Below are positions 1-33,129 of a stretch of DNA of 33,129 nucleotides, one piece after another. Every line of letters starts with the position of its first letter. Within the stretch, counting starts at the first letter, position 1. The notes below the pieces were generated by a model. It searched no databases. It was not told the origin of the DNA and was given only the letters and a program-made list of their open reading frames with translations. The translations under genes and the position numbers were made by a program. Origin of the DNA: a virus (lineage: Duplodnaviria > Caudoviricetes); IMG/VR virus record IMGVR_UViG_3300031519_000117, positions 1 through 33,129 of that record. One strand, 5' to 3'.

Positions 1-3000
1 TCTTCAGATCACTTACCTCGGTATTTTAGAACACAAGTAAACAATAAGTTTTTATCAAGTACAATTGACCAACTTATGCAACCAGGAACGGCTGAAAAGT
101 TGTCTGGGTATTTTGGACAAAAAGAAGCTAAAGGTAGATTACTAAATGACTTCTACATAAATGATGTTAGTAAAAGTAGAGAAGATTATCAATTTGAACC
201 GGCAATTATAAACAAAGACAGTTTAAATAATATTAACTTTTATGCTGATTACAACGATGTAATTAATCAACTTAATACTTTAGGATCAAGTGTTAAAGAT
301 CACAGTTTATTAAACCGACAAGAATACTATTCTTGGGCGCCTAATATTGATTGGGATAAATTTGTAAATTTTAGAGAATACTTTTGGCTACCTAGTGGAC
401 CTCAAGTTGTGCAAATTGCAGGCGAAAAAGACAACGTTGTAAAAACTATAAAAGTTACTACAGTCGACAATGGTGAAAATTATGGTTATGTTTTCACTCC
501 AGACGGTCAAACACAAAATCCTGTTTTAACATTATTTAGAGGTGTAACTTATATCTTTGATATTGATGCTGTAGGAAATCCATTATCTTTTAGAACTAGA
601 AAAGAAACTGCAGGCAAGTATACTCCTAATGTAAGCTATACTATTAATGAGCAAGTTCTTTATAACGGATCAGTATATCTTTGCACAAATGATCATTATG
701 GCGAGACTGATATTAATCTTGATTATTGGAAATTAGATACTACATTTAATTTAACAACGTCAGTTAGTCAAAACGGTATTGAAAAAGGAACTATTGAGGT
801 TACTTTAGATCAATCATCTCCTGATATAATTTTTTATATGTCAGAAAATGACTTATTTGCTAGTGGCACTATTAATGTACTTGAGTTAGAAGAAGCAACT
901 TCGATAGATGTGGAAGCTGCTATTTTAGGGAATAAAACATATACTTCAGAATTAGGCATTGCACTTTCAAATGGAATGAAATTAGAATTTGTTGGTAATG
1001 TAACTCCGGCCAAGTATGGCGAAGGATTTTGGTATGTGGAAGGTGTAGGCGAAAGTATTACACTTAGGTCAGAGGTTGAACTTAATGTTCCTAGTTCTTA
1101 TACTAGTGATTTGAGTGTAGATTTTGACACAACTGGTTTTGATGCATTGCCTTTCTCTGAAGCAATTGGTTATCCTGCAAATAAAGATTATATTACAATT
1201 AATAGAGCAAGTATTGACGGAAACTTATGGTCCAAATATAATAGATGGTTCCATAAAGATGTAATTGAAAAAAGTGCAGCAATAAACAATCAAATTGTTA
1301 ACTTAGATCAAACATCAAGAGCAACAAGGCCTATTATTGAATTTGAAGCAAACTTAAAACTATTTAATTACGGTACAGTTATTAAAGATAGTATTGACTT
1401 GGTTGACAACTTTACTACAGATATTTTTAGCACAATTGAAGGATCTCAAGGTTATAATATTGATGACGTTGATCTTACAAATGGTATGAGAGTACTGTTT
1501 ACAGCTGACACTGATCCGTTAGTTGTAGGAAAAATTTATGAAGTACAATTTATTACATTTAATAACGTAAGACAAATAACACTAAAAGAAACTACAGATA
1601 CTGCACCATTAGTAAACGAAGTTGTATTGTGTAAGCAAGGTACTACCTTTAAAGGTAATATGCTTTGGTATAACGGCACAATTTGGAAGAAAACACAGCA
1701 AAAAACAGAACTAAACCAACAACCTTTATTTGATGTTTATAGCAACACTGGCTATAGCTATTCTAATACAGCATATTATGAATCGTCAACATTTGCTGGA
1801 ACACAATTATTTACATACAAGCAAGGCACAGGAAAAACTGATACTGAATTAGGCTTTGCATTATCATATAGAAGTATTCAAAACGTAGGCGACATTGTTT
1901 TTGAATCTAACTTTTTACAAGATAAAGTTTCTTATGTAATGCCTGATGATACATTAGTTGAAGAAAATATTAACAAAGGATATTTAAGAAAATATTCTGG
2001 TAGAGATTCTTGGGAACTTTTAAATGGTTGGGCAAAAGCAGATGAACTAAGTAGTCAGCCAGTGATACAGCAGTATATAAATGATAATACAAGAACATTT
2101 TTTACTGTTGATGCATACGAAAGAAGTGCAACACTAGATGATCTTTGGGTAAGAGTTTTTGTTAATAATGATTTAAAATTTAAAGATAAAGATTATTCAT
2201 TAGGGCAAGATGCAAATGAAAATGTAACCGTTACATTTATTAATCAATTAACCATCGGCGATAAAATACTTTTAAAAACTAAATCATCGGCAATAAAGAC
2301 CGAAGCGGGCAAATATCAAATTGCTAGTAATTTAGAAAGAAACCCCTTAAATGCTAACGTCAACGAATTTACTCTTGGTGAAATAAACGACCACGTAGGT
2401 ACTATTGTTGAAGAAATTGGAACATTTGACGGTATATTTCCTGGTGTAAGTAATTTAAGAGATTTAGGAAGCATATCAAAATACGGTAAAAGAATTGTAA
2501 AACATTCATCGCCGTTTAACTTGTCTGCATACCATCTTGTAAACAAAGATGCTAATGTTATTAAAGCACTTAAATTTGCTCGTCGAGAATACAGCAAATT
2601 CAAGCGTTCGTTTATACAAGTTGCTACTAGTTTAGGATTTAGCGGTCCAGTAAAAGATCACGTTGATTTAATCTTAAAAGAAATTACAAAAGACAAAACT
2701 AATTTAATGCCGTTTTACTTTAGTGATATGGTACCTTTTACAGGATCAACAAGATCTACAACTGAAGTGTTTGATTCTGAAAATAACTTTTTTGCATTGA
2801 ATACTAAATTTAATCTAACTACGTTATCAGATATTGCTGTACAAGTTTATTTAAACGGTGTACAATTATTACATAATAGAGATTATACATTTAATGAACA
2901 GGGATTTGTAATTATCACTGCTGAAAAAGTGCAAGGTGATATTATTGACATTTTTGAATATCAAACTACTAATGGTAGTTATATTCCACAAACACCAACA

Positions 3001-6000
3001 AAGTTAGGATTGTTTCCAAAATACGAACCAGCACTTTTGCAGGATGATACGTATCTTGAAACACAACAAGTTATTCAAGGACACGATGGTAGTATTACCA
3101 TTGCATATGGTGACTACAGAGATGACTTGTTACTAGAACTAGAAAAAAGAATATACAATAACTTAAAAGTAGAATATGATCCTGCGTTGTTTAATATCCA
3201 CGATTATATTCCGGGACACAGTAGAAAAACTGATTTAACACACTCTCAAATTAACGATAGTATGATTAGTGACTTTATTCAATGGTCGCAATTAGTAGAT
3301 AATGACTATACATTAAATACTGGATTTGAAAGAGAAAATTCGTTTACGTTTAATCATACTGGTATGGTAGACGTTGACGAACAGCCAGTTAATGGCTATT
3401 GGAGATCAGTTTACAAGTACGCATACGATACTGATCGTCCTCATACACATCCTTGGGAAATGCTCGGCTTTACTATTAAGCCTTTATGGTGGGATACAGA
3501 ATACGGCGAAGCACCGTATACAAGTAATAACTTGTTGATGTGGGAAGATATTCAAGAGGGAATTATTAGAACTCCAGGAACCTCAGGAGTTAAGTTACCT
3601 AAATATGCACGAAAGTTTATTACAACTCATATTCCAGTAGATGAAAGCGGAAATTTAATTAGTCCAATTTTAAGTAGTTTTATTAAAAGTTATAATACAA
3701 CAGATTTAAATGCTAGATATGAATTTGGAGATCACAGCCCTGTAGAAACAGCGTGGAGAAAAAGTGCAGAATATCCTTTTGCATTAATTACTTCTTTGGT
3801 ATTAAACCAACCATCAAGAACATTTGCTACAATCTTTGACAGAGCAAGACAAATAAGAGGCACAGCAACTCAAATTAATTATAAAGTTAATAACACTGTA
3901 ATTGCATTGTCTAATATTGACTTTCCTAATAGTATTAAAGAAGCAACTAGAGTTTACACTTCAGGATTAATTAACTATATTGTTGACTATCTTGCTGCAA
4001 ATGTTAGTACACCGTATGACACATATAAAACAGAATTAGTAACCATTAACAATCAAATTGGTTTTAAAATAGGCGGTTATACTACAAAGGATAAATTTAA
4101 ACTAATATTAGATAGTAGAACACCTACTAATCAAGGAAACGTATTTGTTCCTGAAGAAAATTATACTATTAGTTTAAATAAAAGTGCTCCAATTAAAAAT
4201 ATTACTTATAGTGGAGTTATTATTGAAAAGCAAAGTAATGGATTTATTGTAAAAGGGTATGATAGAGAAACTCCATACTTTAATCAATATCCAGCAATTG
4301 CTTTACAAAATGATCCATTAATAAGAATTGGTGGTATTAGTGCTAGTTTTGTAGAATGGACCCCTAGTAAAACATACGTAGACGGCGCAATAGTTGAGCA
4401 TCAAAATGTATACTATCGTTGTACTGAACAACACGTAAGTAGTACTGATTTTGATATTTCTAAATTTGCTAAACTTCCTGAAGTTCCTGTAGAAGGTGGA
4501 CGTGAAGCGTATTTTAGAAAATCATTTAAAAATAATATTGAACGTGTTTCTTATGGAACAACATATAAAACAATACAAGAAGTTGTTGACTTTCTTTTAG
4601 GTTATGCATATTACTTAGAGTCCGAAGGCTTTTGTTTTGATTACTATTCAGCAGATAACGAGTTTGTATCTAATTGGCAAACCAGTGCAAAAGAGTTTAT
4701 GTTCTGGAGTACACAAAACTGGGGTGCAGGCGCAGTTATTACACTAAGTCCAGGTGCATTCCAACTTAAATTTAAAAGTGAATACGCAGTAGTTGATGAT
4801 ATATACGACACATTTTATGGATACAGTTTATTAAAAGCAGATGGCAAAAAGTTACAATCCCAGTTTGTTAGTTTAACTAGAGAAAATGCAAAAGAGTTTG
4901 TTGTTAAGCCAAAAGCAACAGAAGATGGTATTTTTGCTGTAAGATTATCTTTAGTACAAAAAGAGCATATTGTAGTTATTGATAATAAAACTGTATTTGG
5001 CGATATTATTTACGATTTAGAACCAGGTTATAGGCAAGAAAGAATTAAAGTATTAGGATATAGAACAACAGACTGGGACGGAAGTTTAAATATTCCAGGA
5101 TTTGTTTTTGACAATGCAACAGTAACTGAATGGAAAAGTTGGAAAGACTATGCAATCTCTGATATTGTAAAGTATAAAGAATTCTACTACAGTGCTAATA
5201 ACAAAATTCCAGGTACTGAAAACTTTATCGATAGTAACTGGACCAGGTTAAGCGAAAAACCGTCAATGGACTTAAAACCAAACTGGGAATATAAAACAAA
5301 TCAGTTTGCTGATTTTTATGACCTAGACACAGATAACTTTGACCTAGAACAACAAAAATTTGCACAGCATTTAATTGGCTACCAAAACAGAGACTATCTT
5401 GCTAACATTATTAATGATGATGTAAGTCAGTACAAATTTTATCAAGGAATGATACAAGATAAGGGCACAAATAATGCACTTACTAAATTGTTTGATGTAT
5501 TGAGTAGTGATAACAAAGACAGTTTAGAGTTTTACGAAGAATGGGCAATTAAGCAAGGACAGTACGGAGCGTCAGAAGGATTCGAAGAAGTTGAATTTAT
5601 TCTAGATGAAGACCAATTTAAATTACAACCGCAAAGTGTTGAATTAGTAAATTCGACTACTGGTAGTGAAACAGATCTTATATACAGAATTAAACCGTTT
5701 GAAGTATATCTTCGCCCTAACGATTACAATCATAAACCGTTCCCTACAACATATGTTAAGGACACGTACACAAAAAATAGTGGATACGTTAACAACGAAG
5801 ACGTTCAATTTGTTATTGACGATTACGAATCTATTGCTAATATTGAATATAATGATGTTAGAAATAAAGATATGTTTTGGGTAGGTAACGTTGGGCTATC
5901 TTGGAATGTATATACACTGCTAAGATTAGATCTTGAGCTAGAAGAAGTTGCAGTTGACGGTGATACAAGAACACTAAAATTTGCAACTAATATCAGTACA

Positions 6001-9000
6001 TTAAATGTAGATGACTATATTGGTATTGAATATGTATCAGAAGATGGCGTTAACATAGGAAAGTTTGTAAAAGTTACAAAGATTCTTAATAATATAGTTA
6101 CAATTGACGATTTAGAATTGTCGGCATCTGAAACTGTTACTAATACAATTATGACACACTTTGTAAGTGTACGAGTCGGAACATATGACGAGGCAAGTAA
6201 GTTAGTACAAACTTATAAACAAGGAATTACTAGAGTATGGGTTGACGAAGACAGCAATAACCAATGGAAAGTTATTGAAAATACTCCTGGATATAAAAAT
6301 CATCAAGTAATTGCTAACTCTCAAGCAGGCACAGATCACACTTATGGATATTCACTTGCTGCTAACAATAATAATACATTGTTATGTGTAGGTGCACCTG
6401 ATAACAATAACGGAAAAGTTTTTGTTTATGTAAGAGCTGGCAATGCAGGATCATATCAACTGAATCAGATTATTGAACCGGATTCAGGACTTGCAGATGA
6501 TAACGAAAAGTTTGGTTATAGTATCGATGTTGATGAAACAGGAAGATACTTAGTAGTAGGCTCACCAGAAGCGTCTAATGTAAGAAGTGACTTTAACGGT
6601 GAATGGGTTACTACAACAAATTATAATCCAAGTGACATTGTAAGATATAAAGATAATTTATGGTCTGCTAATAAAGAAATTGATGGCGCAACAAACGCTA
6701 TTCAATTTGGTAGTTTTGAATCTGTAGCACAAATTATGGTTGCTCTTTTACAAACAGAACAAGACGATAATCCAAGACCAACTATTTTAACTGGTGATTA
6801 TCCATTTAATAGTGAAGAAATAGATGCAGCATTTAATACAGATCACTGGATTGTTAAAGCACCAAGAGATATGTATGACGGGTCAGGAATTGGCGATACT
6901 GTTAAACTTCGTTGGAATGATCTAACTTATGCAAATCAAGGCACAGCAACAATTAATAGTGTTGCACCATTTGGCGGTGATAATCCGTTAATTGACGAAG
7001 CATACATAACTGGCGATCATACTATTGTTGAAAAGATTGACAGTATTTTATATGTAGAAAACTCTACTACTATTCCTCTTGTAGGGCAAATTATTGAATC
7101 AATTAACGGATTTGCTGAAGTTTCATACACGTTTAATGTTGGTGCAAAAGTTACAATTTATGTTAAAAATCAAAACGGTACTTTTGGTACAGTAGGATCA
7201 ATTACTACTAGCATTGGTGAATTTGTAGGCGAATATATAACAGCTGGACCTGATGACACCGCAGTAGACGCTGACGAAAGTTGGGGTGGATATTGGAGAT
7301 TTAATACTCCATCTTCATATCTTGTTGCAAATACTACTAATTCAGACTTAGGTAGAGGATTAGTATATGTCGACGTAACACCAATTGGTGAAACAAATGA
7401 GAATAGATTTTATTATAATCAACTTGACTATGCAACAAATAATGTAAACAGTGCAGACACTGATCATAATCAACTTATAACATTAAGTTTTGAAGGATCT
7501 CCGGGTCCGGAAGAAGTTGTCGGATCATTTGAATCAGGTCTATATGTTTTCAAAGCACCGTTAGCACTAACAGATCAGTTAGAGACTGAATTAGTTTCTC
7601 AAGGTGACCCAGGAAATCCTGCATTGGATATATTCTATAATCCAATGCCTTCGTTCTTAACAGGCGAACTTGGCAACAGAGATGTTGCAACTATTGGCCT
7701 TGATGTTAACGATGTTAATAAAAAGCATACAGTTTATGATGTTTGGGACGGTTGGATTGATTTTAGAATTACTAAAAACTTAGGCGGTAATCCTGTTGAT
7801 CCAAAAGTTGGATTAACTGTTAGAGATGTAACAAATTTAGGAACTGCTGAAGTTGTATTCTATCAAAGATACGATACAGTTAATGCTAGAATATATGTTA
7901 AAAACGTTACAGGTACGTGGGCAGTAGGCAATCTGTTTAATGAAAATAGAGAAATAGAATTTTTAGCAGACGGTAGCGGAGATCCGTTGTACGATCCCGG
8001 AGCAGGTTTTAGAATATTTGGACAAATTGAGCAAAGAAGTTTTCCATCAGTAGCAGACGGTATTGGAAAGTTTGTTGTAATTAACAATGGACCAAATATC
8101 CAAATTCAAGATATTGATGACGATGTTGCTACTAGAGAAGATACAATTAGTAATGGCGAATATTGGTTCTTTAGAGAAGAAACAGTAAACGGTATTGCAA
8201 GATTACCAAACATACCAACTATAACTAATAATGATTGGGATATTATTTACAATGTTCCTGCATCAACAGGCGGAACAACTCCAGTAGCCGCAGGAAATGC
8301 TGCAACTGCTAATGAAGGTATGTACTCGATATATGAAAGACGGGGCATTGGATCTTTTGTTAAAGTAAATTCATTTATTGTTCCTGATAGAAAAGAAAAT
8401 CAATATCTTGGAACTAAGATTAAGGTTACACAAAATGGTAGTACTAATAAACTGTTTGTAGAATCTAAAGGAGACAATACACTTACAAATCCAGGAAGAA
8501 TTTACATATATAAAAATGGTAATTTTGACGGTGTAAACTTTGGCTGGGATTCTTCTAGAAATAAATCATATACAGGTGTTTATGATACATCAACAGTATA
8601 CTTTACAGATGAATTAGTTTATAATAACGGAGAACTATACAGAGCTGCCACTACCACAGGCCCCGGAGCGTTTGATAATTCAGACTGGACAGTACTTGCT
8701 GATAACGAGATAGTAGATTACTTAGGATATCTTCCAAATAAAACTGGTAATATCGTAGGAGAGAATGAAATAATAGATGCAGTTCAATTAACAAAGTTTG
8801 CAAAAGCATTTGACGTTGACGGCACAGGCGAAGTTATTGTTGTTACTACAGAATATTCTTTAGAAAAACCAAATACTATTGAAGTTTATAGAAACATTAA
8901 CGGGTCATTCTATAAAGCACAATCAATAGAAGCACCAAATAAAGACACAAACTTTGGTACAAATATTGCAATTAGTAACGATGGCGGATTGATTGCTGTT

Positions 9001-15378: not shown

Positions 15379-15397
15379 CTATTAGTAGGAAACAAAT

Positions 15398-16012: not shown

Positions 16013-16017
16013 TAGAG

Positions 16018-18057: not shown

Positions 18058-18059
18058 GA

Positions 18060-19916: not shown

Positions 19917-19929
19917 TATTTGCAAAAGC

Positions 19930-19937
19930 GATAAATA
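19930..19937 (+). promoter_or_regulatory. T4-like late promoter variant (GATAAATA)
   Basis: Intergenic, 26 nt upstream of ATG19964, followed by an AGGGG RBS. Confidence 0.65.
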
Positions 19938-19963
19938 TTACAATAAACAGGGGTTAAACAAGT

Positions 19964-21484: not shown

Positions 21485-21487
21485 ATA
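21480..21487 (+). promoter_or_regulatory. T4 late promoter consensus TATAAATA
   Basis: Exact consensus overlapping the TAA stop at 21482-21484, about 30 nt before ATG21517, with an AGAGGT RBS in between. Confidence 0.75.
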
Positions 21488-21516
21488 ACTACGTATATAA
21501 TTAAGAGGTACAAAAA

Positions 21517-22500: not shown

Positions 22501-22522
22501 GTAAATTATTTCTAAATAACAC

Positions 22523-22551
22523 TTGACATAACACCGATATTCATATATACT
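22523..22551 (+). promoter_or_regulatory. Sigma70-type promoter TTGACA-N17-TATACT
   Basis: TTGACA at 22523-22528, a 17-nt spacer and TATACT at 22546-22551. RBS AGAGGT at 22565-22570 precedes ATG22576. Confidence 0.8.
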
Positions 22552-22575
22552 ATTATAAATGAATAGAGGTTTCTT

Positions 22576-22929
22576 ATGGACGAAAGATTAGAAAAAGCAT
22601 TAGACTTTTCAAACTATATGGTTACGCTTAACAGTCAAAAGCGTGTACTTAAAGAAAAATTTAGAGAACAAACAGTATTTTATCATCTAGGTGGTCAATT
22701 TACAGTCAATAAACAATTAATGACTTTTGTTAGTATGCTTGTTGAGCAAGGTAATGATGAAGACATTGTATTAGTTGACGATAATGAAACTCCTATTATG
22801 GTCAAAGACCTAGCAGACTTCCAATCTGAAATATTAAACACTTATTTTACTGCTGCAAATGAATATCACGCTGAGTATGAAAAGTTACGTAAGAACAGGA
22901 GTGTGGAGAAACTAGTTGAATACAAATAA
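22576..22929 (+). CDS. Hypothetical protein, possibly tail-fibre assembly chaperone-like (DUF4376-like)
   Basis: 117 aa with a good RBS. The pattern GGQF....LVDDNETPIMVKDLADF followed by a long C-terminal helix resembles small proteins found downstream of fibre genes. The family call is weak. Confidence 0.4.
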   Translation: MDERLEKALDFSNYMVTLNSQKRVLKEKFREQTVFYHLGGQFTVNKQLMTFVSMLVEQGNDEDIVLVDDNETPIMVKDLADFQSEILNTYFTAANEYHAEYEKLRKNRSVEKLVEYK

Positions 22930-23806
22930 AGGTATACTAGTTTTTGCTAGAAATAATGCCCAAATAGATTATTGTAAACAAGCATACTTTCTTGCAAAAA
23001 GAGCAAGAGAGTATTTAGATGTGCCTACAAGTATAGTTACTGATAGCACAGAATACTTATTGTCAACATACCCTGATGCAGAAGATGTATTTGACAAAAT
23101 TATTAGTATTGTTTGGAAAGAATCTGACCTAACAGAAAATACAACTTTATCAAATCACGAAGATCATAAAATTAGAACATTTTATGATGGAACTGTTATT
23201 GAGAAAAAACTTCAATTTAAAAATGAAACAAGAACATTAGCATATGATGTATCACCATATGACGAAACTTTAATCCTAGATACTGATGTTGTAATATGTA
23301 ATGATGTTTTTAAGCAATGTTTCAATCAATCACACAATTTTTTGATATACAGAACTTCATACGATCTTGCAGACATTAATAGAGCAGGTGTATTTGATAG
23401 AATTTCAGACACTAGTGTAGATTTTTATTGGGCAACGTGTGTATTTTTTAGAAAATCTCCTGCTAATAAATTATTTTTTAATTTACTACAACATATACAA
23501 GAAAACTGGCAGCACTATAATAACATATTTCAGATTAATACTCCTTACTATCGAAATGATTATAGTTTTGCAATTGCTATTCATATTATGAATGGTTATC
23601 AAACTGGTGATTTTGCAAAGCCAATGCCAGGAGTATTGTATTATACTACTGATAAAAGCATTTTATGGGAATTAGGTAAAGACGAGCTGTTACTATTGTT
23701 AGAAAAAGAATTATACAAAGGCGAATATACTCCATTGCGTATTAAAAATGCAAATGTACACGTAATGAATAAGTTTAGTTTGAATAGGTGTATTGATGAG
23801 CAGTAA
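22916..23806 (+). CDS. GT-A fold glycosyltransferase (GT8/GT71-like nucleotide-diphospho-sugar transferase)
   Basis: TTG start with GGAG 7 nt upstream. Motifs KGILVFA..Y..QA..LA, SPYDETLILDTD (DxD), VFFRKS, RNDYSFAIA and HVMNK. Confidence 0.75.
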   Translation: MNTNKGILVFARNNAQIDYCKQAYFLAKRAREYLDVPTSIVTDSTEYLLSTYPDAEDVFDKIISIVWKESDLTENTTLSNHEDHKIRTFYDGTVIEKKLQFKNETRTLAYDVSPYDETLILDTDVVICNDVFKQCFNQSHNFLIYRTSYDLADINRAGVFDRISDTSVDFYWATCVFFRKSPANKLFFNLLQHIQENWQHYNNIFQINTPYYRNDYSFAIAIHIMNGYQTGDFAKPMPGVLYYTTDKSILWELGKDELLLLLEKELYKGEYTPLRIKNANVHVMNKFSLNRCIDEQ

Positions 23807-24623
23807 AGGTTTTTTAATTTATGCTTCGGGCAAAGAGTTTGTAACACAAGCATATCTTTGTGCGTTAAGTATTCGTGCTTCAGGAAACAAATATCCTGTT
23901 AGTATTGTCACAAACGACAAATTATCAGCAAAATACAAAAAAGTATTTGATAAAGTAGTTGATATTCCTTGGTATAAGGAAACAACTAGTAGATTTCAAA
24001 CAGAACACAGGTGGAAAAACTATCACGCAACTCCATATGACGAAACTATTGTTTTAGACAGTGATGTATTAGTGCAACAAGACCTAGAAGCATTTTGGAG
24101 TTTAATGAAAAACTATGATTTATATTATCCTTCAAGAGTGTTTACATATAGAAAAGAATTAATTACTAATAGCTTTTATAGAAAAGCATTTGTAAAAAAT
24201 AACTTACCTAGTGTATATAATACTTTGCATTACTTTAAAAAATGCGACTTATGTAAAGAGTATTATACGTGGGTAGAGCTTATCTGTAACAACTGGGAAT
24301 TATTTTACGGCAACTTTTGTCAAGAATTTTATCCTAAACAACCTAGTATGGATATTACAGCAGCTATTGCAGCCAAAATTATGAACATTGATACACAGTT
24401 CACAAATGCTACATTAGATCTGCCAATGATTGTGCATATGAAGCCTGCAATACAAAACTGGCTAAATGAAACTAGTTCGTGGCAAGACAGAGTTGGTAGT
24501 TATATTGCAGATGATGTAACGCTAAAAGTTGGTAACCATTTACAAGATACTGTTTTTCATTATACAGAAAATGATTTTGTAACAGATGCTATAATTAGGA
24601 AGTATGAACAATGTCAAAATTAG
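23796..24623 (+). CDS. GT-A fold glycosyltransferase, paralogue of the 22916 gene
   Basis: ATG23796 preferred over TTG23793 (AGGTG RBS). Motifs KGFLIYA..QAYLCALSI, TPYDETIVLDSD (DxD), HYFKK, SMDITAAIA and VHMK. Confidence 0.75.
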   Translation: MSSKGFLIYASGKEFVTQAYLCALSIRASGNKYPVSIVTNDKLSAKYKKVFDKVVDIPWYKETTSRFQTEHRWKNYHATPYDETIVLDSDVLVQQDLEAFWSLMKNYDLYYPSRVFTYRKELITNSFYRKAFVKNNLPSVYNTLHYFKKCDLCKEYYTWVELICNNWELFYGNFCQEFYPKQPSMDITAAIAAKIMNIDTQFTNATLDLPMIVHMKPAIQNWLNETSSWQDRVGSYIADDVTLKVGNHLQDTVFHYTENDFVTDAIIRKYEQCQN

Positions 24624-25186
24624 CATACGTAATCTTTAACAAAGACTCAGGAGCAATTATCAGTGTTGGTAACGAAGCATCTGAAACTGATAGCTATATT
24701 CAAGTACCGTTAGTTGATGTACTTACAATTATTACAGGCGATGAACGAGCAACTAATTATCACGTACAGTATAATCCAAAAACAAAAGAACTTGAGTTTC
24801 AGTCAAAGCACGAATTTACTTTAGATTCAACAACAGTTAAAGATTTTATTTACGAGTTACCACAAGATAGTATTGATGACGCTGATGTTCAAGTAATACA
24901 AGATATACCTAATTCTTGTTGGAAAATAAAACTAGGTGATTCTTTAAAATCTAACATTAAAAATAAAGGCATTAATTTAAATGCTAGATTTTTGTTTAGT
25001 ATTACTAAGAAAGGTGACCCTAACATATTGTACAAAACTCTTAATGTGCATATAGGCCAGACGGTCTCTGATAATTACTGTATAGTACCATTTGATATGC
25101 CGTTTGAAACAACGAGTGTGCCTATAAGTGTTTACACGTCGAGAAGATTTGACACTTATCAACTAACGAGGATTGTTAATGAGTAA
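24611..25186 (+). CDS. Hypothetical protein
   Basis: 191-aa ORF overlapping both neighbours. No recognisable catalytic motif. Confidence 0.7.
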   Translation: MSKLAYVIFNKDSGAIISVGNEASETDSYIQVPLVDVLTIITGDERATNYHVQYNPKTKELEFQSKHEFTLDSTTVKDFIYELPQDSIDDADVQVIQDIPNSCWKIKLGDSLKSNIKNKGINLNARFLFSITKKGDPNILYKTLNVHIGQTVSDNYCIVPFDMPFETTSVPISVYTSRRFDTYQLTRIVNE

Positions 25187-26072
25187 AATTAGAATAGTAG
25201 ATCAAGATATTATCTTTTTGTCATATGACGAGCCTAACGCAGAAAAAAATTACGCAGATTTGTGTGCAAAAGTACCGTGGGCAAAACGTGTACACGGAGT
25301 AGAAGGTTCAGATGCAGCACATAAAGCCTGTGCTGACCTAAGTGAAACAGAATATTTTATTACTGTTGATGCAGATAACATTGTGGACCAAGAGTTTTTA
25401 AATGTAGAAGTTGATTACGAACAATTAGAACTATCACCAGAGCACGTTTTTAGTTGGTGCGGCAAAGTACACGTTAACGAACTAATGTACGGCAACGGTG
25501 GACTAAAAATGTGGACACGTAAGTTTGTACACAATATGAAAACACACGAACATTCGGAAGATGGCGATGAAAGAGGCAAAGTAGAATTTTGTTTTGATGA
25601 CAAGTATCATCAGTTTAATGAAAACTACAGTGTTTCCTATACTAACGCAACACCTTGGCAGGCTTGGAGAGCAGGTTTTAGAGAAGGTGTTAAAATGAGT
25701 TTAGATCAAGGCGCCAAAGTTAGTGATATTAGAAAAACGTGGTTTCAAAACTTTGATCGTTTGCGTATTTGGTGCTCAGTTGGTGCCGATGTAGAAAATG
25801 GACTATGGAGTATGTATGGTGCTCGTGAAGGCCTGTACAAAACTATGTGTACAGACTGGGACTATGCAGAAGTGCGTGATTTTAAATGGCTTAATTCATA
25901 TTGGAAAGACAAAGTACAAGACGAAAGCGATCTATTAGAAGCAATTGAAGATTACGGCAACAAGTTAAGATCAAACCTTGGATTAGAAATTGCTGAATTA
26001 GATGCAAATGGCAGTCATTTCTTTAAATCTTTATATCACAATACTCCAAGAGTAATTAGGAAGAAAAAATGA
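25179..26072 (+). CDS. GT2-like (GT-A) glycosyltransferase
   Basis: ATG25179 preferred (GAGGA 6 nt upstream). Motifs DIIFLSYDE, RVHGVEGSDAAH, FITVDADN (DxD), YGNGGLK and AWRAGFREGVK. Confidence 0.7.
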   Translation: MSKIRIVDQDIIFLSYDEPNAEKNYADLCAKVPWAKRVHGVEGSDAAHKACADLSETEYFITVDADNIVDQEFLNVEVDYEQLELSPEHVFSWCGKVHVNELMYGNGGLKMWTRKFVHNMKTHEHSEDGDERGKVEFCFDDKYHQFNENYSVSYTNATPWQAWRAGFREGVKMSLDQGAKVSDIRKTWFQNFDRLRIWCSVGADVENGLWSMYGAREGLYKTMCTDWDYAEVRDFKWLNSYWKDKVQDESDLLEAIEDYGNKLRSNLGLEIAELDANGSHFFKSLYHNTPRVIRKKK

Positions 26073-27451
26073 ATAATGAACTAGAAAAAATTAAGAACAT
26101 TATTCCAATTACTGACGCAACAATCAGTCCCACATTCTGTATGGCTAAATGGCATCATACAACTATCTATCTTGCAACAGGCGAAACGCACAGTTGTTAT
26201 CATCCAGCACCTCATAAAATTCCGCTGGAAGAAATTAAAAACAACCCTAGTGCATTACATAATACAAAAGAAAAAAAAGAACAACGTAGGCAAATGATTA
26301 AAGGCGAAAAGCCTAGCGGATGCAACTATTGCTGGAAGATTGAAGCAATGGGTAAAGATTTCGTTAGTGATAGACACATTAAAACTGCGAGTATCTATAC
26401 TCCAGAACGACTCACAGAAATTAAAGAAAACGGATTCAATTATGACATCAACCCTGAATATATCGAAATTAGCTTCTCGAACGAATGTAACTTTAAGTGC
26501 GGTTACTGTCATCCAAAAGCCTCGAGTAGATACTACAACGAAATCAAACAACACGGCCCGTACAAAACCTCAACCGACCATAGACAAGACATAGATTGGT
26601 TTGAAATTTATCAAAAGGAAGATGATAATCCTTATGTAAAAGCCTGGTGGGAATGGTGGCCTGAAGTTAGTAAAACATTAAACATTTTACGTATTACTGG
26701 CGGCGAGCCTCTTATGCACAAAAGTACTTGGGAATTATTTGAACGATTAGATAAAGATCCTAAACCACATCTACAGATTGAAATTAATAGTAATATGGGC
26801 GTTAAGCCTAAACTAGTAGAAAAACTTGTTAGTGCAGTTAAGAAATTAAAAGCAGATGGTAAAATTAAAAGTTTTAAATTATACACTAGTATTGATACTT
26901 GGACAGGAAGAGCTGAATACACACGAACAGGTTTAGATATTAACCTTTGGGAAAAAAACTTAGACTATTATCTTTCTAATACAGGCTGGCCCGTAACGTT
27001 TATGATTACGTTTAACTTGTTTAGTGTTACAAGTTTTGATACCTTACTTGCTAAAATACTAGAGTGGCGAAAAAAGTATAACGGAGATCAAAATTCAACA
27101 CAATGGCAGCGTGTAAGATTTGATACTCCGCATTTAAAAGAACCTACTATATATGATATGAATATTTTACCTAAAGAAGAATTTATACCGTATATGGAAA
27201 GGCATTTACAGTTCATCGAAAACAATATGGACAATGCCGATCGCACTAAATTTACAACTTTAGAATACGAAAAATTTAAACGTGTTGTAGAGTATATGCG
27301 AACAACGCATTACGATAGTGTTGCATTAAAGCAAGCACGTAAAAACTTTTATAATTGGTTTACAGAACACGATCGTAGAAGAAACACAAATATTATAGAA
27401 TCATTTCCAGAATTAGAAAACTTTTGGAAATTAACACAGGAAGAACTATGA
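26069..27451 (+). CDS. Radical SAM enzyme with N-terminal Twitch/SPASM-type Fe-S domain
   Basis: CxxxCxxC motif (CNFKCGYC), ITGGEP, INSN and TSID radical-SAM core motifs. Extra N-terminal cysteines CMAKW..G..HSCYH..CNYCW. ATGA overlap with the upstream gene. Confidence 0.9.
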   Translation: MNNELEKIKNIIPITDATISPTFCMAKWHHTTIYLATGETHSCYHPAPHKIPLEEIKNNPSALHNTKEKKEQRRQMIKGEKPSGCNYCWKIEAMGKDFVSDRHIKTASIYTPERLTEIKENGFNYDINPEYIEISFSNECNFKCGYCHPKASSRYYNEIKQHGPYKTSTDHRQDIDWFEIYQKEDDNPYVKAWWEWWPEVSKTLNILRITGGEPLMHKSTWELFERLDKDPKPHLQIEINSNMGVKPKLVEKLVSAVKKLKADGKIKSFKLYTSIDTWTGRAEYTRTGLDINLWEKNLDYYLSNTGWPVTFMITFNLFSVTSFDTLLAKILEWRKKYNGDQNSTQWQRVRFDTPHLKEPTIYDMNILPKEEFIPYMERHLQFIENNMDNADRTKFTTLEYEKFKRVVEYMRTTHYDSVALKQARKNFYNWFTEHDRRRNTNIIESFPELENFWKLTQEEL

Positions 27452-28476
27452 GCAAAACAGTATTAGTAACAGGCGGTGCAGGCTTTATTGCACATCATTT
27501 AGTTGACAAAATTTTAACAGAAACTGACTGGAGGATTGTTACCTTAGATAGATTAGATTATAGTGGCAATTTAAATAGATTACACGAAGTAATGTTAAAA
27601 CATCCGGAAAAAGAAAGACAACGAGTACGTGTAATACATCACGACCTTAAAGCAGAACTTAACCCACAAATCAGAGCAATGATTGGTAAGGTTGATATGA
27701 TTGCACACCTTGCAGCCGGTTCACACGTAGATAGAAGTATTACATATCCTATGGAGTTTGTACTAGACAATGTTGTAGGTACTGCAAATTTACTTGATTA
27801 TGCTCGTAATCTTGATACTCTAGATATGTTTGCTTATTTTTCAACAGATGAAATATTTGGCCCAGCACCGGGCAATATAAAATATAAAGAAAATGACAGA
27901 TATAACAGTACAAATCCATACAGTGCTTCAAAAGCGGGAGCCGAAGAGCTAGTTGTAGCATATGAAAATACTTACGGACTTCCTAGTATTATTACACATA
28001 CTATGAATGTATTTGGTGAACGCCAAAACGCAGAAAAATATATTCCAATGTGTATTAAGAAAGCAAGAGACAACGAACTTGTAACAGTACATTCAAATGC
28101 TGAAAAAACTATTGCAGGATCACGTCATTATATCCACGCTGAAGATGTTGCAGATGCTTTAATGTTCTTATACAATTACGATCTAAGTAAGTTAGGACCA
28201 GACGAAACTGGTGCAAAGTGTCAAAAATTTAATATTGTAGGTAGTACAGAAATTAACAACTTAGAACTTGCACAGTTTATTGCAGACACACAAGGCAAAC
28301 CATTAAATTATGAAATGGTAGACTTTCATAGTAGTCGTCCAGGACACGATTTGCGTTATGCACTAGATGGTTCTAAGATGGCTGATATGGGATGGCAGCC
28401 CAGCAGTGCTTATGATAAATTAGAAAAAGTAATCGACTGGACATTGAAAAACAATAGGTGGTTGGTTAATGGTTAA
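27448..28476 (+). CDS. rmlB: dTDP-glucose 4,6-dehydratase-like NDP-sugar dehydratase (extended SDR)
   Basis: VLVTGGAGFIA, LDRLDYSGN, HLAAGSHVDRSI, STDEIFG, PYSASKA (YxxxK) and RPGHDLRYALD. The start is ATG27448 (ATGA overlap) rather than TTG27424. Confidence 0.88.
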   Translation: MSKTVLVTGGAGFIAHHLVDKILTETDWRIVTLDRLDYSGNLNRLHEVMLKHPEKERQRVRVIHHDLKAELNPQIRAMIGKVDMIAHLAAGSHVDRSITYPMEFVLDNVVGTANLLDYARNLDTLDMFAYFSTDEIFGPAPGNIKYKENDRYNSTNPYSASKAGAEELVVAYENTYGLPSIITHTMNVFGERQNAEKYIPMCIKKARDNELVTVHSNAEKTIAGSRHYIHAEDVADALMFLYNYDLSKLGPDETGAKCQKFNIVGSTEINNLELAQFIADTQGKPLNYEMVDFHSSRPGHDLRYALDGSKMADMGWQPSSAYDKLEKVIDWTLKNNRWLVNG

Positions 28477-29236
28477 TTTTCAACAACTATTACAGTCCGT
28501 TGAAAATTTTAAAACTACCGAGCCTTATAATTACAGCGTGATTGAAAACTTTTTAGAAGATGATTGTGCCCGTAGTGTGGCACAAGAATTTCCTGACTTT
28601 GATAGTAAAAATTATAATGGAAATTATACTAATCAGATTGAACTTAAAAAGACTTGTAATATCTGGGATAGATTTTTGCCCAACACTTATAAACTTTTAC
28701 ACTATTTAAATAGTCCAGAGTTTGTTGACCAAATGTGTATGCTTACAGGATGCGATGAATTAATTGCAGACCCTGGATTACACGGCGGCGGACAACATAT
28801 ACACCCAAACGGCGGTAAACTTAATCCTCATCTAGATTATAGTATTCATCCTAAATTAGGATTGCAACGTAAATTTAATTTGTTGATATACCTAACGCCA
28901 GACTGGAACGAATCGTGGGGAGGAGATTTTGGTATATGGAACAAAGACCATACACTAAACACATCTATTTCTCCACAGTTTAATCGTGCTATCATTTTTG
29001 ACACAACACAAGATAGTTTACACGGGTTATCAACACACGTAAATTGTCCAGATAACAAAACACGAAATAGTATTGCTGTATATTACCTTACTCCTGCTCC
29101 TAAAGATGCAGATAAAAGAAACCGTGCATTGTTTGTACCAACTGAAGAACAAAAAAATAATAAAGATATTTTAGATTTGATTGAAAGACGAAGTAAAGTG
29201 TCAGGGAAAAATGTAGAAGAATGGGATCGAAAATGA
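28469..29236 (+). CDS. 2OG-Fe(II) oxygenase (prolyl-hydroxylase-like family)
   Basis: HxD (PHLD), distal His (SLHG) and 2OG-binding Arg (RNSIAVYY), plus LLIYL..W...WGG and PQFNRAIIF. Confidence 0.88.
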   Translation: MVNFQQLLQSVENFKTTEPYNYSVIENFLEDDCARSVAQEFPDFDSKNYNGNYTNQIELKKTCNIWDRFLPNTYKLLHYLNSPEFVDQMCMLTGCDELIADPGLHGGGQHIHPNGGKLNPHLDYSIHPKLGLQRKFNLLIYLTPDWNESWGGDFGIWNKDHTLNTSISPQFNRAIIFDTTQDSLHGLSTHVNCPDNKTRNSIAVYYLTPAPKDADKRNRALFVPTEEQKNNKDILDLIERRSKVSGKNVEEWDRK

Positions 29237-30555
29237 ACTTTTTATTTCAAGAAGAGACGCAAAGAAGAAACATTACTAACTGTGACGATATTAATCCATC
29301 ACAGTTTAGAAGATTTACAAAAAGTCCGTTAGTTGAAACTATTTTACGTTTTAAGAAATTAAAATGGATCTTTAAAGACTTTGATAGAGATACTATAGTT
29401 GTTGACTCTTTAAGTAAAAGAAAACGCTATGACAAATATATTATAGCAACCGGAGTTGGTCACGCTCCTGTTGATTGGTGTGGGTCACTTGATCTAGACA
29501 AAGATTATGATTCGCATATGAAACCAAGAAATACAATTTTTTATTACCTAGATCCAAAAATACTTTCAGCAATGCGTAAAGGCAAAGCATTTTTACTTAT
29601 GGATCAAAGTCACGAAGGATATCACAACGATTGGTTATTTGACTGGTTCCACGATGCTTGTCAAAAATATAATGTTCCGCCCTCAGCAGTTATCTATGTA
29701 ACAGGCAACCTTGCAGTTGATACACAGTATAAAGAATGGTGCAAAACAAACTTGCCAAATAGTAAAATGTGTGTTATTCCACACATACAATTTGACGAAT
29801 ATATGTGGGATGCCGCTAAGAAACAAAGAAAAGTAATTCCAACAGTTAGTGATCATTTAGAATATAAAACTAAAAATAAAAAATTAATAAAAACATACAA
29901 TTGTTTTCAAAAAAGAAATCGCCCGCATCGTATATGGATGTTCCATCATTTATACAATAATGATTTACTAAAAGACGGACTTAATAGTATGAATGATTTT
30001 ACAGTTAGAGATTCATACTACGAAGGTAAACGAATAGAACAATCTCAATATGATGAATATAAACATCTGTTGCCAATGTATCCTAGAAAAGAGTTAGACC
30101 AACAATTACAAACAGCATTCACAGGACCGTTAGGCGGAAACTTTGAACAAGATTTATATTACCAAGAAGTAAGAGACTCTTGGGTAAGTGTTGTTAGTGA
30201 AGCATCTTTTGCAGAACGTACTTGTTTTATTAGTGAGAAGTCTTTTAAACCAATTGCTACACAACACCCTTTTATTATATACGGAAATAAAAATAGTTTA
30301 TCTTATCTAAAAGATATTGGATACAAAACATTTGATGGATTTATTGACGAATCATACGATAAATTAGAAACGTGGGATAGACTAGATGCTATTCTTAAAG
30401 AAATTAAAAAAATTAAAAGTATGTCACATACAGAAAAATTAGATTGGTTTAGTAGACAGCGAGATATTTTAGAACATAACTTTGAAATACTAGAACGTAA
30501 TTCAACTGAAGTGCCAATTGCATTTGATACGTTAAAAAACTATACAGGAAGATAA
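29233..30555 (+). CDS. Putative GT-B glycosyltransferase-like protein (GT10/exostosin-like C-terminus)
   Basis: C-terminal SVVSEASF..FISEKSFKPI..HPFIIYG..LKDIGYKTF resembles the E-N/x-S..Y/F-I-T/S-EK donor-binding motif of GT10 fucosyltransferases. RPHR motif upstream. Start taken at the ATGA overlap, 29233. Confidence 0.55.
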   Translation: MNFLFQEETQRRNITNCDDINPSQFRRFTKSPLVETILRFKKLKWIFKDFDRDTIVVDSLSKRKRYDKYIIATGVGHAPVDWCGSLDLDKDYDSHMKPRNTIFYYLDPKILSAMRKGKAFLLMDQSHEGYHNDWLFDWFHDACQKYNVPPSAVIYVTGNLAVDTQYKEWCKTNLPNSKMCVIPHIQFDEYMWDAAKKQRKVIPTVSDHLEYKTKNKKLIKTYNCFQKRNRPHRIWMFHHLYNNDLLKDGLNSMNDFTVRDSYYEGKRIEQSQYDEYKHLLPMYPRKELDQQLQTAFTGPLGGNFEQDLYYQEVRDSWVSVVSEASFAERTCFISEKSFKPIATQHPFIIYGNKNSLSYLKDIGYKTFDGFIDESYDKLETWDRLDAILKEIKKIKSMSHTEKLDWFSRQRDILEHNFEILERNSTEVPIAFDTLKNYTGR

Positions 30556-31626
30556 ATGTTTCATCATCAAATTAAAAAAATTAATAACGATTTAAAACGT
30601 ACTAAACGAGCTATTATAAGTTTTGGATGTTCTTTTGTTGAAGGCCAAGGAGCAATTGATCAAGACCTATATGAAACTTCTGAATGGAGTATGGACCACG
30701 TTGGTATTCCAATGACTGCTAATTTATCAAAAAAAGAACGCGATAGACTATTAAAAACCAATCCGTTGTTATACACAAATTTACAAGGTGAAATTCAGTG
30801 GGAAAAAATGGAACAGAAGAATGCATTTGTAAATGTTTTATGTAACAAGTACTATGGTAATTCTTGGACACCTATTAATTTTGGTATTCGAGGAAGGGGC
30901 AATCGAGCATCGATAAGAAATTTATATTATTGGCCTGAGCTACAATTAAAACGTGCGAAAGAAATTATAGTTGTGTGGTCACCTAGTGGGATGGAAAGAT
31001 ATGATTTTGTAAATGACGTATTTGATGAGCATAATATGTTTCACACAGTATGGCCACATAAAAATCAAGACCATTTGCAAGGTCCGCGAAAGCAATTATG
31101 GGATGCCTATGCTGATGGTGTATACACTGAGAAGCAAGCAGTTCTTGAAACTATTGCAACTGCACTTGAACTAAAAAATTGGTGTACGGCACATAAAGCA
31201 AAATTAATTATTACTCCAGCGTTTGATGAAGGGTATACAAAAAAGAATATGATTCAGAGATTGAATGATATCTGCATAAGAAATGGTGACAATGTGTTGC
31301 AACGGCATTTTAGATCAGGCGAAAATTCAATGAAAGAAGCATTGCTTCGTAAAAAACAATATTATGCAGGGTATTCAGATACTATGACTAAGATTGTTGA
31401 ACAATGGCCGTGGGAAGATATGTTTAAGCCGCAGGATCAGTTAACGTTTGCTCAGTTGTGTACTAAGCAAGAAAAAGAACAAGTTCATTTTTGGGAATAC
31501 AGTGGAAAAGGCTCACCTAATGACTGGATAACAGTTTGTGCCCATCCTAGTGCTAAAGGTCACGATTTGTTTGCAGAGGAAATTTATAAAAAAATAGAAG
31601 GCGTTTATAAAAATGGGAACATTTAA
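30556..31626 (+). CDS. SGNH/GDSL-fold protein (putative O-acyltransferase/esterase)
   Basis: Block I FGCSFVEG, block II INFGIRGRGN and C-terminal HPSAKGHDLFAEEIY. Confidence 0.65.
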   Translation: MFHHQIKKINNDLKRTKRAIISFGCSFVEGQGAIDQDLYETSEWSMDHVGIPMTANLSKKERDRLLKTNPLLYTNLQGEIQWEKMEQKNAFVNVLCNKYYGNSWTPINFGIRGRGNRASIRNLYYWPELQLKRAKEIIVVWSPSGMERYDFVNDVFDEHNMFHTVWPHKNQDHLQGPRKQLWDAYADGVYTEKQAVLETIATALELKNWCTAHKAKLIITPAFDEGYTKKNMIQRLNDICIRNGDNVLQRHFRSGENSMKEALLRKKQYYAGYSDTMTKIVEQWPWEDMFKPQDQLTFAQLCTKQEKEQVHFWEYSGKGSPNDWITVCAHPSAKGHDLFAEEIYKKIEGVYKNGNI

Positions 31627-32410
31627 GTGGTCATCGGCTAAAAATTTACCTTGGTATTTTGATAGAAAAAAGTTTCAACAGTTAGGGTGGATAACCTTAC
31701 CAGATCATAGAGACAGCTCAGTAATTACTAATCATTTTGCAATGGGAGATACCTACCAGCTGTATAAGAAAAACAAGACAGCACTAGGACCTAATTGGCA
31801 TTATTTTAATAAGCAAATAACATACACTTGTAACTCACAAGGATACAGGGCACCCGAATTTGATACAGTTGATTGGAAAAACAGTATTGTAGTTTTTGGT
31901 TGTTCAATGGTAGCAGGTATAGGTGTTGATGATACAGAAACTATTACACATCAATTACATTTAAAATCAGGTCGACCTGTAATTAATATGGGAGCACCGG
32001 GTGCAGGCCTTGATGTTACTTTGTGGAATAATTTTATACTTAACTCACAATATCCAAAGCCTTGGGCAGTAGTAAACCTATTTACAAATTTTCATAGATT
32101 TTGTATATACAGAGAAAAGGATGTAAGTTATGTAGGTCCTTGGGACGACACTAATCCAGCATATACAAGTTATATGCAACACCCTAATCATAGTGTAATC
32201 AAAGCAATGCAACAAACAGACCAAGTTAAGTATATGTGGCAAGATACTAGAACATTTTATGGCTCGTTTTTTGACGAGTCAGCACACCACGCAAGCACAG
32301 ATCATAGATTGCTATTTCATAATACTGCTAGAGATCTTCAACACTGTGGTCTAAAAGATAATAAAAGAAATGCTGCACTAATTTGGTCGTATCTACAAAC
32401 TCCAGCTTGA
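31613..32410 (+). CDS. SGNH/GDSL-fold protein (putative O-acyltransferase/esterase)
   Basis: NSQGYR..EF preceding block I VFGCSMVAGIGV, block II INMGAPGAG and C-terminal DxxH (RDLQH). Confidence 0.7.
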   Translation: MGTFKWSSAKNLPWYFDRKKFQQLGWITLPDHRDSSVITNHFAMGDTYQLYKKNKTALGPNWHYFNKQITYTCNSQGYRAPEFDTVDWKNSIVVFGCSMVAGIGVDDTETITHQLHLKSGRPVINMGAPGAGLDVTLWNNFILNSQYPKPWAVVNLFTNFHRFCIYREKDVSYVGPWDDTNPAYTSYMQHPNHSVIKAMQQTDQVKYMWQDTRTFYGSFFDESAHHASTDHRLLFHNTARDLQHCGLKDNKRNAALIWSYLQTPA

Positions 32411-32435
32411 CAATAATAGTATAAGGTGTTATAAT
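32407..32435 (+). promoter_or_regulatory. Perfect sigma70 promoter TTGACA-N17-TATAAT with extended -10 (TGn)
   Basis: TTGACA at 32407-32412 (overlapping the upstream TGA stop), TG at 32427-32428 and TATAAT at 32430-32435. Confidence 0.85.
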
Positions 32436-32441
32436 TACAAG

Positions 32442-33119
32442 ATGTATGATATCGTTTTTATCAGTTATAATGAAGCATATGCTGAAGATAACTGGAATAT
32501 GTTAAAAAGTAGGTTTCCAACGGCTAAAAGAGTGGACGGAGTAAAAGGAATTCATCAAGCACATATTAAGGCAGCAAAGAAATGCTTTACTAAGATGATT
32601 TGGGTTGTTGATGCAGATGCTCAAATAGTTGATGACTTTGATTTTAGTTACGAAGTTGACAAATACTCACTGGATGCTGTACACGTTTGGAGAAGTAGAA
32701 ATCCTATAAACAGTCTTGAATACGGATATGGAGGAATTAAATTATTTCCTAGAAATTTAACACTAAAGATGGATATTACAAAAACAGATATGACTACTAG
32801 CATTAGTGACAAGTTTAATGCAATACCAGAGGTATCAAATATTACAGCATTTAATACAGATGAATATTCAACTTGGCGCAGTGCATTTAGAGAATGTGCT
32901 AAGTTAGCAAGTAAGACTATAGAGAGACAAAACGAGGAGGAAACAAATGAAAGACTTAGAATTTGGACAACAGTGGGAAAAGACAAACAGTTCGGCGAAT
33001 ATTGTATTAAAGGTGCTATCGCTGGCAGGGAGTTTGGGCTTTCTAGCAAGCCTAATTTACAATTAATAAACGACTTTGATTGGTTATATGAACAATTTTC
33101 AAAAAATACCGTGGAATAA
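32442..33119 (+). CDS. GT2-like (GT-A) glycosyltransferase, paralogue of the 25179 gene
   Basis: Motifs DIVFISYNE, RVDGVKGIHQAH, WVVDADA (DxD), YGYGGIK, TWRSAFRECAK and RLRIW, collinear with the 25179 protein. Confidence 0.72.
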   Translation: MYDIVFISYNEAYAEDNWNMLKSRFPTAKRVDGVKGIHQAHIKAAKKCFTKMIWVVDADAQIVDDFDFSYEVDKYSLDAVHVWRSRNPINSLEYGYGGIKLFPRNLTLKMDITKTDMTTSISDKFNAIPEVSNITAFNTDEYSTWRSAFRECAKLASKTIERQNEEETNERLRIWTTVGKDKQFGEYCIKGAIAGREFGLSSKPNLQLINDFDWLYEQFSKNTVE

Positions 33120-33129
33120 TATTACAGAG
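33088..33129 (+). CDS. Possible start of the next gene (3'-truncated; MNNFQKIPWNNITE...)
   Basis: ATG33088 opens a frame running off the window and overlapping the end of the 32442 gene, in keeping with the coupled operon. Only 14 codons are visible. Confidence 0.35.
   Translation, partial: MNNFQKIPWNNITE

Follow-up and report, generated by a model that had tools for sequence, protein, structure and literature searches.

Genomic context and loss of CATG

The stretch of DNA analyzed here, referred to as the window, comprises positions 1 to 33,129 of IMG/VR virus record IMGVR_UViG_3300031519_000117 and is a fragment of a marine myophage of about 350 kb, kin of Atu_ph07 and PA5oct. Its genes and other features are compiled in Table 1. 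This work concerns the complete loss of the word CATG from this DNA and its relation to a predicted 7-deazaguanine mark on the DNA of the phage family.

Table 1. Features of the window, with the basis on which each was assigned
Feature	Position	Strand	Basis
CATG-free stretch of jumbo myophage genome; AAGCTT and CTTAAG also absent	1..33129	.	exact counts
Virion/baseplate protein of about 5,100 aa (CBM_5_12, FG-GAP and TIG repeats); many CAC-G, NCG-TG and NNT-ATG swaps	1..15375	+	phrog_10938
Surviving CTGCAG, predicted-shielded context	608..613	.	flank reading
Surviving GTGCAC, AG-site-CT, H-G-purine on both strands	6392..6397	.	flank reading
Thr-Trp as ACG TGG; rare ACG replaces ACA	7915..7920	+	codon reading
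Conserved 204-aa protein, family marker; 50-55% identity to Atu_ph07 and Phosso	15398..16012	+	phrog_11259
Four tail/fibre and structural genes, the first with a collar domain	16018..22500	+	PF07484
His-Glu-His-Asp as CAC GAA CAC GAT; neither His uses CAT before G	17815..17826	+	codon reading
Glycosyltransferase-like, radical SAM, dTDP-sugar dehydratase and 2OG-Fe oxygenase genes, unknowns	22576..33119	+	domain search

An exact count yields 384 CAT and 645 ATG but no CATG, which is the only one of the 256 tetranucleotides missing from the window; the claim of an earlier note that CATG is wholly absent while the other 4-bp palindromes all occur was thus confirmed. Base composition predicts 101.9 sites and an order-2 Markov model 76.3 (z -10.4, the lowest of the 4-mers), and 300 synonymous-codon shuffles of the 18 genes that make up 99.7% of the window gave 55.8±5.7 sites (minimum 42; about 19, 18 and 19 by frame). 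The figure of about 100 sites given earlier exceeds what is expected under constant codon usage, yet the deficit itself is genuine.

The loss can be followed codon by codon in the window genes. Histidine is encoded by CAC in all 39 cases in which the next codon starts with G, compared with 89 CAT and 35 CAC elsewhere. NCA never occurs among the 39 codons that precede TG, compared with 1298 of 2287 elsewhere, and NCG is enriched there (12 of 39 vs 150 of 2287). In the third frame, which the earlier note did not name, NNC precedes ATG in 0 of 136 cases vs 1273 of 10856 elsewhere. The remarks of the earlier note on histidine and on NCA and NCG were borne out by these counts, and its three codon examples (17815-17826, 7915, and CCG TGG at 12460) were all found in place. 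At conserved dipeptides where the sister locus L210 has CATG, the window shows 28 single synonymous swaps, namely, 16 to CACG, 5 to TATG, 5 to CTTG and 2 to CGTG, and the changes CAT to CAC and NCA to NCG go opposite to the AT bias.

Four independent contigs of the same virus, L081, L202, L203 and L204, whose overlaps are 99.5-100% identical, each contain no CATG; with L203 upstream, L081 downstream and the other two inside, the CATG-free span reaches 51,024 bases. Scan error and assembly artefact were ruled out by the exact count and these overlapping contigs. Strain variants from four runs showed 405 differences.

Purged words across the phage family

CATG is not the only word lost: AAGCTT (0 vs 13 expected) and CTTAAG (0 vs 8) are also missing from the coding DNA of this virus (50.8 kb), so that the earlier notion of single-motif avoidance had to be abandoned. 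As to whether related phages share the CATG gap, some do, namely, the loci L209/L285 (L209 being part of a 112-kb metagenome contig), L208, L205, L082 and L044 as well as the relatives G038 (41 kb) and G072 (first 100 kb), but most keep the word. Sister loci L001, L206, L207 and L210, at about 74% nucleotide identity, retain 18-45 sites each. In G072, 8 CATG sites lie in the final 3.9 kb beyond a GIY-YIG gene (G072:C1:100001-103879, L409), after 100 kb without any. Gene order is unbroken into this end, which is likely chimeric or else was acquired by recombination from a relative that keeps CATG, and it is excluded from the G072 counts. Forcing six CATG-free rows into one clade was rejected by the approximately unbiased test (p 9e-52; 6 rows vs 22, quick LG+G4 tree of 28 rows, L044 and three other long rows having been dropped beforehand), so that by this tree CATG loss would have at least two origins or the word was regained.

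A census was made of 216 dereplicated family loci, obtained from 342 of at least 8 kb. Purged words were GCWGC at 42 loci, CGCG at 15 of 161, AGCT at 11, CATG at 10, CTAG at 4, GCGC at 4 of 201, ACGT and TGCA at 2 each, and AATT and GTWAC at 1 each, with up to ten palindromes lost together in one member (G041). GATC (0/216), GANTC (0/216), TCGA (0/211), GGCC (0/211), CCGG (0/202), GGNCC, CCWGG, TCNGA and GTAC were never purged. Counts below a codon-aware null, synonymous loss in every frame and palindromes that vary by lineage point to Type II restriction-site avoidance, and several words per genome with turnover among lineages are as expected from Type II systems of the hosts (Rusinov 2018, PMC6286503). 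Two loci, L449 and L255, fully lack AATT (0/72 and 0/14), a site without G and thus beyond any guanine mark. Another locus, L570, a putative family member, has a single GTAC in 21 kb.

Mutational or codon-pair bias, with no selection by a nuclease, would agree with the mildly low CATG content across relatives (0.82 of the codon null as the median of those 77 loci, out of 80, for which the expected count sufficed). We give this explanation next to no credence, since loss in three frames proceeds through opposite base changes (T to C, A to G or T, C to T), since the close sisters keep their sites, and since other lineages lose other words. A family-wide bias was ruled out by the codon shuffles, the synonymous swaps relative to CATG-keeping sisters and the census of differing words.

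Surviving sites follow a flank rule

Across the family, many sites persist only where a G stands in the context H-G-(A/G), either within the site or immediately 5' to it; such copies are called shielded here, and the others bare. On the 335-kb contig of G067, a G flanks every GCWGC site (35) and every GCGC site (126); the bare contexts AGCGCA (0/58), AGCGCT (0/30) and TGCGCA (0/22) are empty, compared with 60/64 for GGCGCA. The flanking G is seldom itself preceded by G (1 of 111 for GCGC and 2 of 73 for AGCT, vs 13% and 24% in the background). An initial rule limited to GA or GGC gave no effect for a shielded CATG class, and the HGR rule was adopted instead. For sites ending in G it predicts bare classes such as RCATGY, for which zeros in G041 and G076 had already been observed before the rule was fixed.

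Over the 216 loci, the bare class of CATG was purged at 19 of 206 (shielded class kept at 10, both lost at 9), that of GCGC at 38 of 194 (21 and 3), that of AGCT at 19 (7 and 8), that of CTAG at 6 (2 and 4) and that of CTNAG at 8 (8 and 0), and the converse was seen at none for any of these words. Where a site ends in G and its other strand is bare, the next base was A in 323 cases, G in 303 and C or T in 0; the next bases at the inferred HGR motif were GT in 105, GC in 89, GA in 79 and GG in 30. Observed over expected counts of CAATTG were 62/70 shielded vs 0/23 bare in G041 and 85/124 vs 0/45 in G067, and the large contigs show the same split for CATATG, CTTAAG, CTGCAG, CAGCTG and CACGTG. 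Among 6-mers, purging affected 7 of 168 cases for self-shielded words, 40 of 268 for other words containing G and 0 of 112 for words that have no G; six of these seven cases contain CATG or CTAG where that word is itself wholly purged, which leaves TTCGAA in G035 as one true exception. Non-palindromic control words were at expectation, with no flank effect.

The same footprint was found in the virus of the window. GATC (155 observed, 144 expected), GGCC and CCGG are at expectation, and for CGCG, CTGCAG, CAGCTG and GTGCAC, four motifs picked from the pattern in relatives and pooled, bare copies number 0 of 16.3 expected and shielded copies 33 of 41.6. All 4 CTGCAG and all 10 CAGCTG sites of the window belong to the predicted-shielded class, and the two GTGCAC sites not in Table 1, at 16310 and 17156, stand in the context AG-site-CA. 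CAATTG, CATATG and CTAG are not purged. About three quarters of the expected CATG sites would carry the mark, and both classes are empty (0/73 shielded, 0/25 bare). G072 likewise shows the footprint on four motifs, with 0/124 shielded CATG and none in 100 kb.

Cultured phages allow a comparison. PA5oct has 61/58 shielded and 0/13 bare CTGCAG, and its only two GTGCAC sites are both shielded (HG and CD flanks), which would account for its reported ApaLI resistance; its DNA has been described as resistant to enzymes with GA or GG sites (PMC12191111). In the 200 kb covered of each of Atu_ph07 (490 kb) and Kae01 (360 kb), 12 and 10 6-mers containing GA or GG, respectively, have been purged, and both classes of CTGCAG and of CAGCTG have been lost. 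These two phages, in which no homolog of the TGT-like protein described below was found, do not share the PA5oct pattern.

A TGT-fold protein and deazaguanine genes

The CATG-free relative G072 encodes FolE, a QueE-like protein and an unannotated protein of 511 aa (L404:2878-4410). All 50 PDB matches listed for the predicted structure of the latter are tRNA-guanine transglycosylases (TGT; E 4.6e-6 to 3.2e-5), its matches among viral models include proteins of phages nt-1 and phiST, and the ESM Atlas places it in a TGT-like cluster (0.93). It has no match in Pfam, NCBIfam or PHROG. The alignment keeps DSGG, LDIP, QG, GG, LG and FDC, which we take to be TGT active-site motifs. The protein is present in 18 of 50 fragmentary family records, and homologs were found in 13 cultured phage records (PA5oct-like phages, one vibriophage and Phosso), with none found in Atu_ph07 or Kae01. 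A QueD-like protein is encoded in G067; of these FolE, QueE-like and QueD-like matches, most are below the NCBIfam cut-offs.

The PA5oct homolog is 34.6% identical. It is annotated as hypothetical (MK797984.1:222985-224607, EST35_0316, L514) and lies near the DNA polymerase and QueE genes. EST35_0316 is a candidate for the DpdA of PA5oct, a phage already reported to carry modified G.

Search for restriction-modification genes

The earlier note had proposed either a host defence directed at CATG or a CATG nuclease encoded by the phage. Selection of the restriction type acting through synonymous change supports its general idea, and the host branch is preferred, given that any one member of the family has lost a number of different palindromes together; a phage nuclease found no support in the fragments covered, which amount to about 14% of the genome of this virus and 29% of that of the longest CATG-free relative. 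No DNA methyltransferase was detected among these fragmentary records with PF02086 (D12; 0 of 42), PF01555 (N6_N4; 0 of 32) or PF00145 (C5; 0 of 50), the controls being positive. The IceA/NlaIII-like model PF05315 matched 0 of 50 and 0 of 5 records, a weak negative given that it was silent in every control genome, and it gave two weak matches among 301 Flavobacteriales. Pfam scans of 147 and 131 proteins, mostly of G030, and of 150 of the 153 G067 proteins unmatched in G030 identified no restriction enzyme; the nucleases seen were HNH, GIY-YIG, TnsA-like and UvdE. The domain search of the window genes at 22576..33119 found no nuclease or DNA methyltransferase domain, and the G072 proteins unmatched in CATG-keeping relatives contain no nuclease domain.

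The GIY-YIG protein was considered as a CATG nuclease and ruled out, as it is 89-95% identical over 80 loci, CATG-free or CATG-rich, with no residue that tracks the loss. This stand-alone gene (L186:818-1264, L408:19578-20000, 80 loci) adjoins SbcCD-like genes. One may speculate that it is a nuclease for host DNA, similar to T4 EndoII, that the guanine mark keeps off phage DNA.

A phage endonuclease that shreds host DNA (cf. chlorovirus CviAII), with the site purged instead of methylated, would exert constant, self-inflicted selection and hence fit an absolute zero in every context over 51 kb here and 100 kb in G072. That no CATG methyltransferase was found agrees with it, most of the genome lies outside the covered fragments, and restriction nucleases often escape Pfam. 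We nevertheless consider it unlikely: bare-class zeros, seen with as many as ten motifs per genome (G041, G067), better fit a pool of host enzymes, and the GIY-YIG, G072 and, weakly, PF05315 results all speak against it.

Survival of GGCGC could in principle be due to a C5-methyltransferase. A phage enzyme was rejected, as none was found in 50 records and none on the 335-kb G067 phage contig; three matches in G067 are all on other contigs. A C5-type methyltransferase of the host is conceivable but would leave the survivors after a terminal G unexplained.

A probable motif-limited shield and its gaps

Taken together, we regard it as probable that a host Type II enzyme cutting CATG is not blocked by the predicted 7-deazaguanine mark of the phage, and that avoidance fills the gaps in a motif-limited shield. 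After replication, a DpdA-like enzyme would swap G for 7-deazaguanine at HGR, and this mark would block most enzymes that read GA or GG, which would be why GATC, GGCC, CCGG, TCGA and GANTC are never purged. Bare copies of other sites would then be removed by selection. Where a host enzyme ignores the mark, every copy would be lost, CATG in this lineage being such a case, and other lineages would lose just the bare class RCATGY. Since CATG is totally lost despite the shielded footprint, the CATG-cutting activity is most likely not blocked by the mark. In this reading, the TGT-like protein would modify DNA with HGR as its motif, its gene would be present in this virus, and the nuclease would be that of the host.

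Several observations weigh against this reading. The TGT-fold model is moderate (predicted local distance difference test score 66, template modelling score 0.3-0.47), and sequence searches of the PDB with the protein gave 0 matches. The 51 kb covered of this virus did not reveal a DpdA-like gene, and its QueC-like gene (L081:13303-13998) matches PF06508 with E 0.0016, below the cut-off; QueC-like proteins can be unrelated, as cautioned in PMC6884629. Phages with DpdA2 have been found to modify <0.1% of Gs (PMC10516641), which would be too little for so clean a footprint unless this DpdA subfamily differs. The flank rule has exceptions in TTCGAA (0/7 in G035), GGGCCC (0/6 in PA5oct) and, for both ACGT and GTWAC, a single locus with the converse. 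The 10 loci purged of RCATGY alone, which is also the specificity of the known enzyme NspI, may reflect a 6-base cutter. Kae01, which lacks the gene, splits CGCG (69/114 vs 0/36) because of its GCGC and ACGCGT purges, which makes CGCG weak evidence. To these may be added the choice of the four pooled motifs mentioned above, and that the proposed indifference of the CATG enzyme to the mark follows solely from the total loss.

Two further explanations dispense with an effective shield at CATG. In one, CATG methylated by the host is cut in phage DNA that acquires the methyl group, by a methyl-dependent nuclease of the host (Type IIM/IV) or of the phage, and the guanine shield is irrelevant. This would explain loss regardless of flank (0/130 shielded sites pooled, and the 9 loci that lost both classes), and GATC avoidance has been reported where phage hosts encode Type IIM enzymes (Rusinov 2018, PMC6286503). 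It is improbable, as neither a nuclease of this kind nor a host methyltransferase was detected and as the total purges of AGCT, GCWGC, CTAG and GCGC in other lineages would each need the same arrangement. In the other, which appears slightly more improbable still, the shield was lost or weakened in this lineage and all sites were purged as by an unmodified phage. The shielded classes of AAGCTT (0/3.4) and CTTAAG (0/5.7) are indeed also gone here, and the 51 kb covered show no DpdA gene. Against it, GATC, GGCC and CCGG are at expectation, four motifs keep shielded copies only, G072 combines gene, footprint and total CATG loss, and G392/G393 possess the DpdA-like gene yet wholly lack GCGC in 21 kb.

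Returning to the host enzyme and the incomplete shield, we lean slightly toward a broader view, namely, that of an abundant marine jumbo-phage family with an unannotated DpdA subfamily marking HGR, whose genomes record which host enzymes are blocked and in which total CATG loss points to hosts with a mark-insensitive CATG enzyme or, in its boldest form, to a CATG nuclease of the phage itself for the destruction of host DNA. The predicted shield, which the earlier note did not consider, would account both for the choice of sites that have to be purged and for the retention of GATC, GGCC, CCGG and TCGA.

The virus, its family and its hosts

By the CheckV estimate, the window makes up 9% of its genome, and relatives are as long as 335-347 kb. 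Common virion proteins and a genome of >300 kb assign the virus to the group 2.2 jumbo myophages (Atu_ph07/PA5oct/Rak2-like). Of the 93 phage records matched by the 204-aa marker, Phosso and Atu_ph07 (50-55%) ranked first, followed by Rak2-like phages, and the top records are 337-490 kb long. Just beyond the window end, L081:10635-18957 carries at least six radical-SAM genes together with a methyltransferase-like gene and the QueC-like PP-loop gene, and such clusters recur, reshuffled, across family members. The genome walk ended at the L081 terminus, where no further exact match was found; relatives retrieved in one search of this walk have only a common accessory gene, their structural marker being 36-37% identical.

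Of 24 runs listed, 19 carry half or more of the words sampled, and their labels, where given, are marine, seawater or brine. A host of the SAR11 clade (LD12) has been proposed for a freshwater Atu_ph07-like jumbo phage (10.1101/655167), which may serve as a lead only for the host of this virus. Assignment of a host from genome bins was rejected, as 15 loci are in bins of unrelated taxa, read as mis-binning. Whole phages or large parts of them (up to 335 kb; L287, L299, L292, L296, L286) lie inside unrelated bacterial and archaeal bins and are likely mis-binned. Relatives G030 and G067 (L161-L163, L172-L173, L387) carry genes of host type, which are possible host clues: SdhB-like, ClpP/ClpS, heme oxygenase and bilin reductase, IMPDH, phosphoenolpyruvate carboxykinase, alternative oxidase, several flavin halogenases, and phosphate and polyamine-type ABC transporters. 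The set of words purged in each lineage is a usable host signature for these widespread uncultured viruses.

Comparison with known systems

The word CATG is shared with the chlorovirus restriction-modification system CviAII, and CATG methylation has been described in Phycodnaviridae (PMC9516812). Chloroviruses methylate their sites, whereas no D12, N6_N4 or C5 methyltransferase was found here.

Known DpdA systems act at GA/GGC in CAjan (PMC7544227) and at GA in iggy (PMC10484667), and DpdA1-4 have been distinguished (PMC10516641, PMC6884629). The phages studied here resemble them in combining a TGT-fold enzyme with FolE, QueD and QueE, in the first G of the motif, and in the protection of motif-bearing sites, here by sequence footprint. 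They differ in that the inferred motif is HGR (GA or GG not after G), that the protein has none of the family matches sought, that QueC is doubtful and that the mark is predicted. PA5oct (Wroclawvirus, with Paride), unlike this virus, keeps CATG (359/410 shielded, 152/166 bare). The covered text of its description names a QueE and a QueD-type gene and no transglycosylase (PMC12191111). For this cultured phage it is predicted that EST35_0316 encodes an enzyme that modifies G before a purine, except after another G.

Site avoidance by itself is ordinary, and the CATG loss is a clear example of an established strategy. Total or nearly total removal of sites was reported in about one-tenth of cases for non-temperate dsDNA phages, and avoidance vanishes in T4-like phages with hydroxymethylcytosine (Rusinov 2018, PMC6286503). 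The near-complete loss of orthodox Type II palindromes through synonymous change is alike in the present phages; unlike in those cases, avoidance and a predicted base modification occur together, split by the flanking base. Avoidance confined to the openings that a motif-limited shield leaves would be a new variant: in the partial literature covered, avoidance that depends on flanking bases was not found described for deazaguanine phages, and the supplementary phage lists of PMC6884629 and PMC10516641 may include this protein family. It opens a route to infer, from surviving restriction sites alone, the DNA-modification motif used by an uncultured virus and how sensitive host enzymes are to the modification. 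Such pairing of avoidance with modification would answer the question of the joint use of avoidance with other antirestriction means, which Rusinov 2018 had called unclear.

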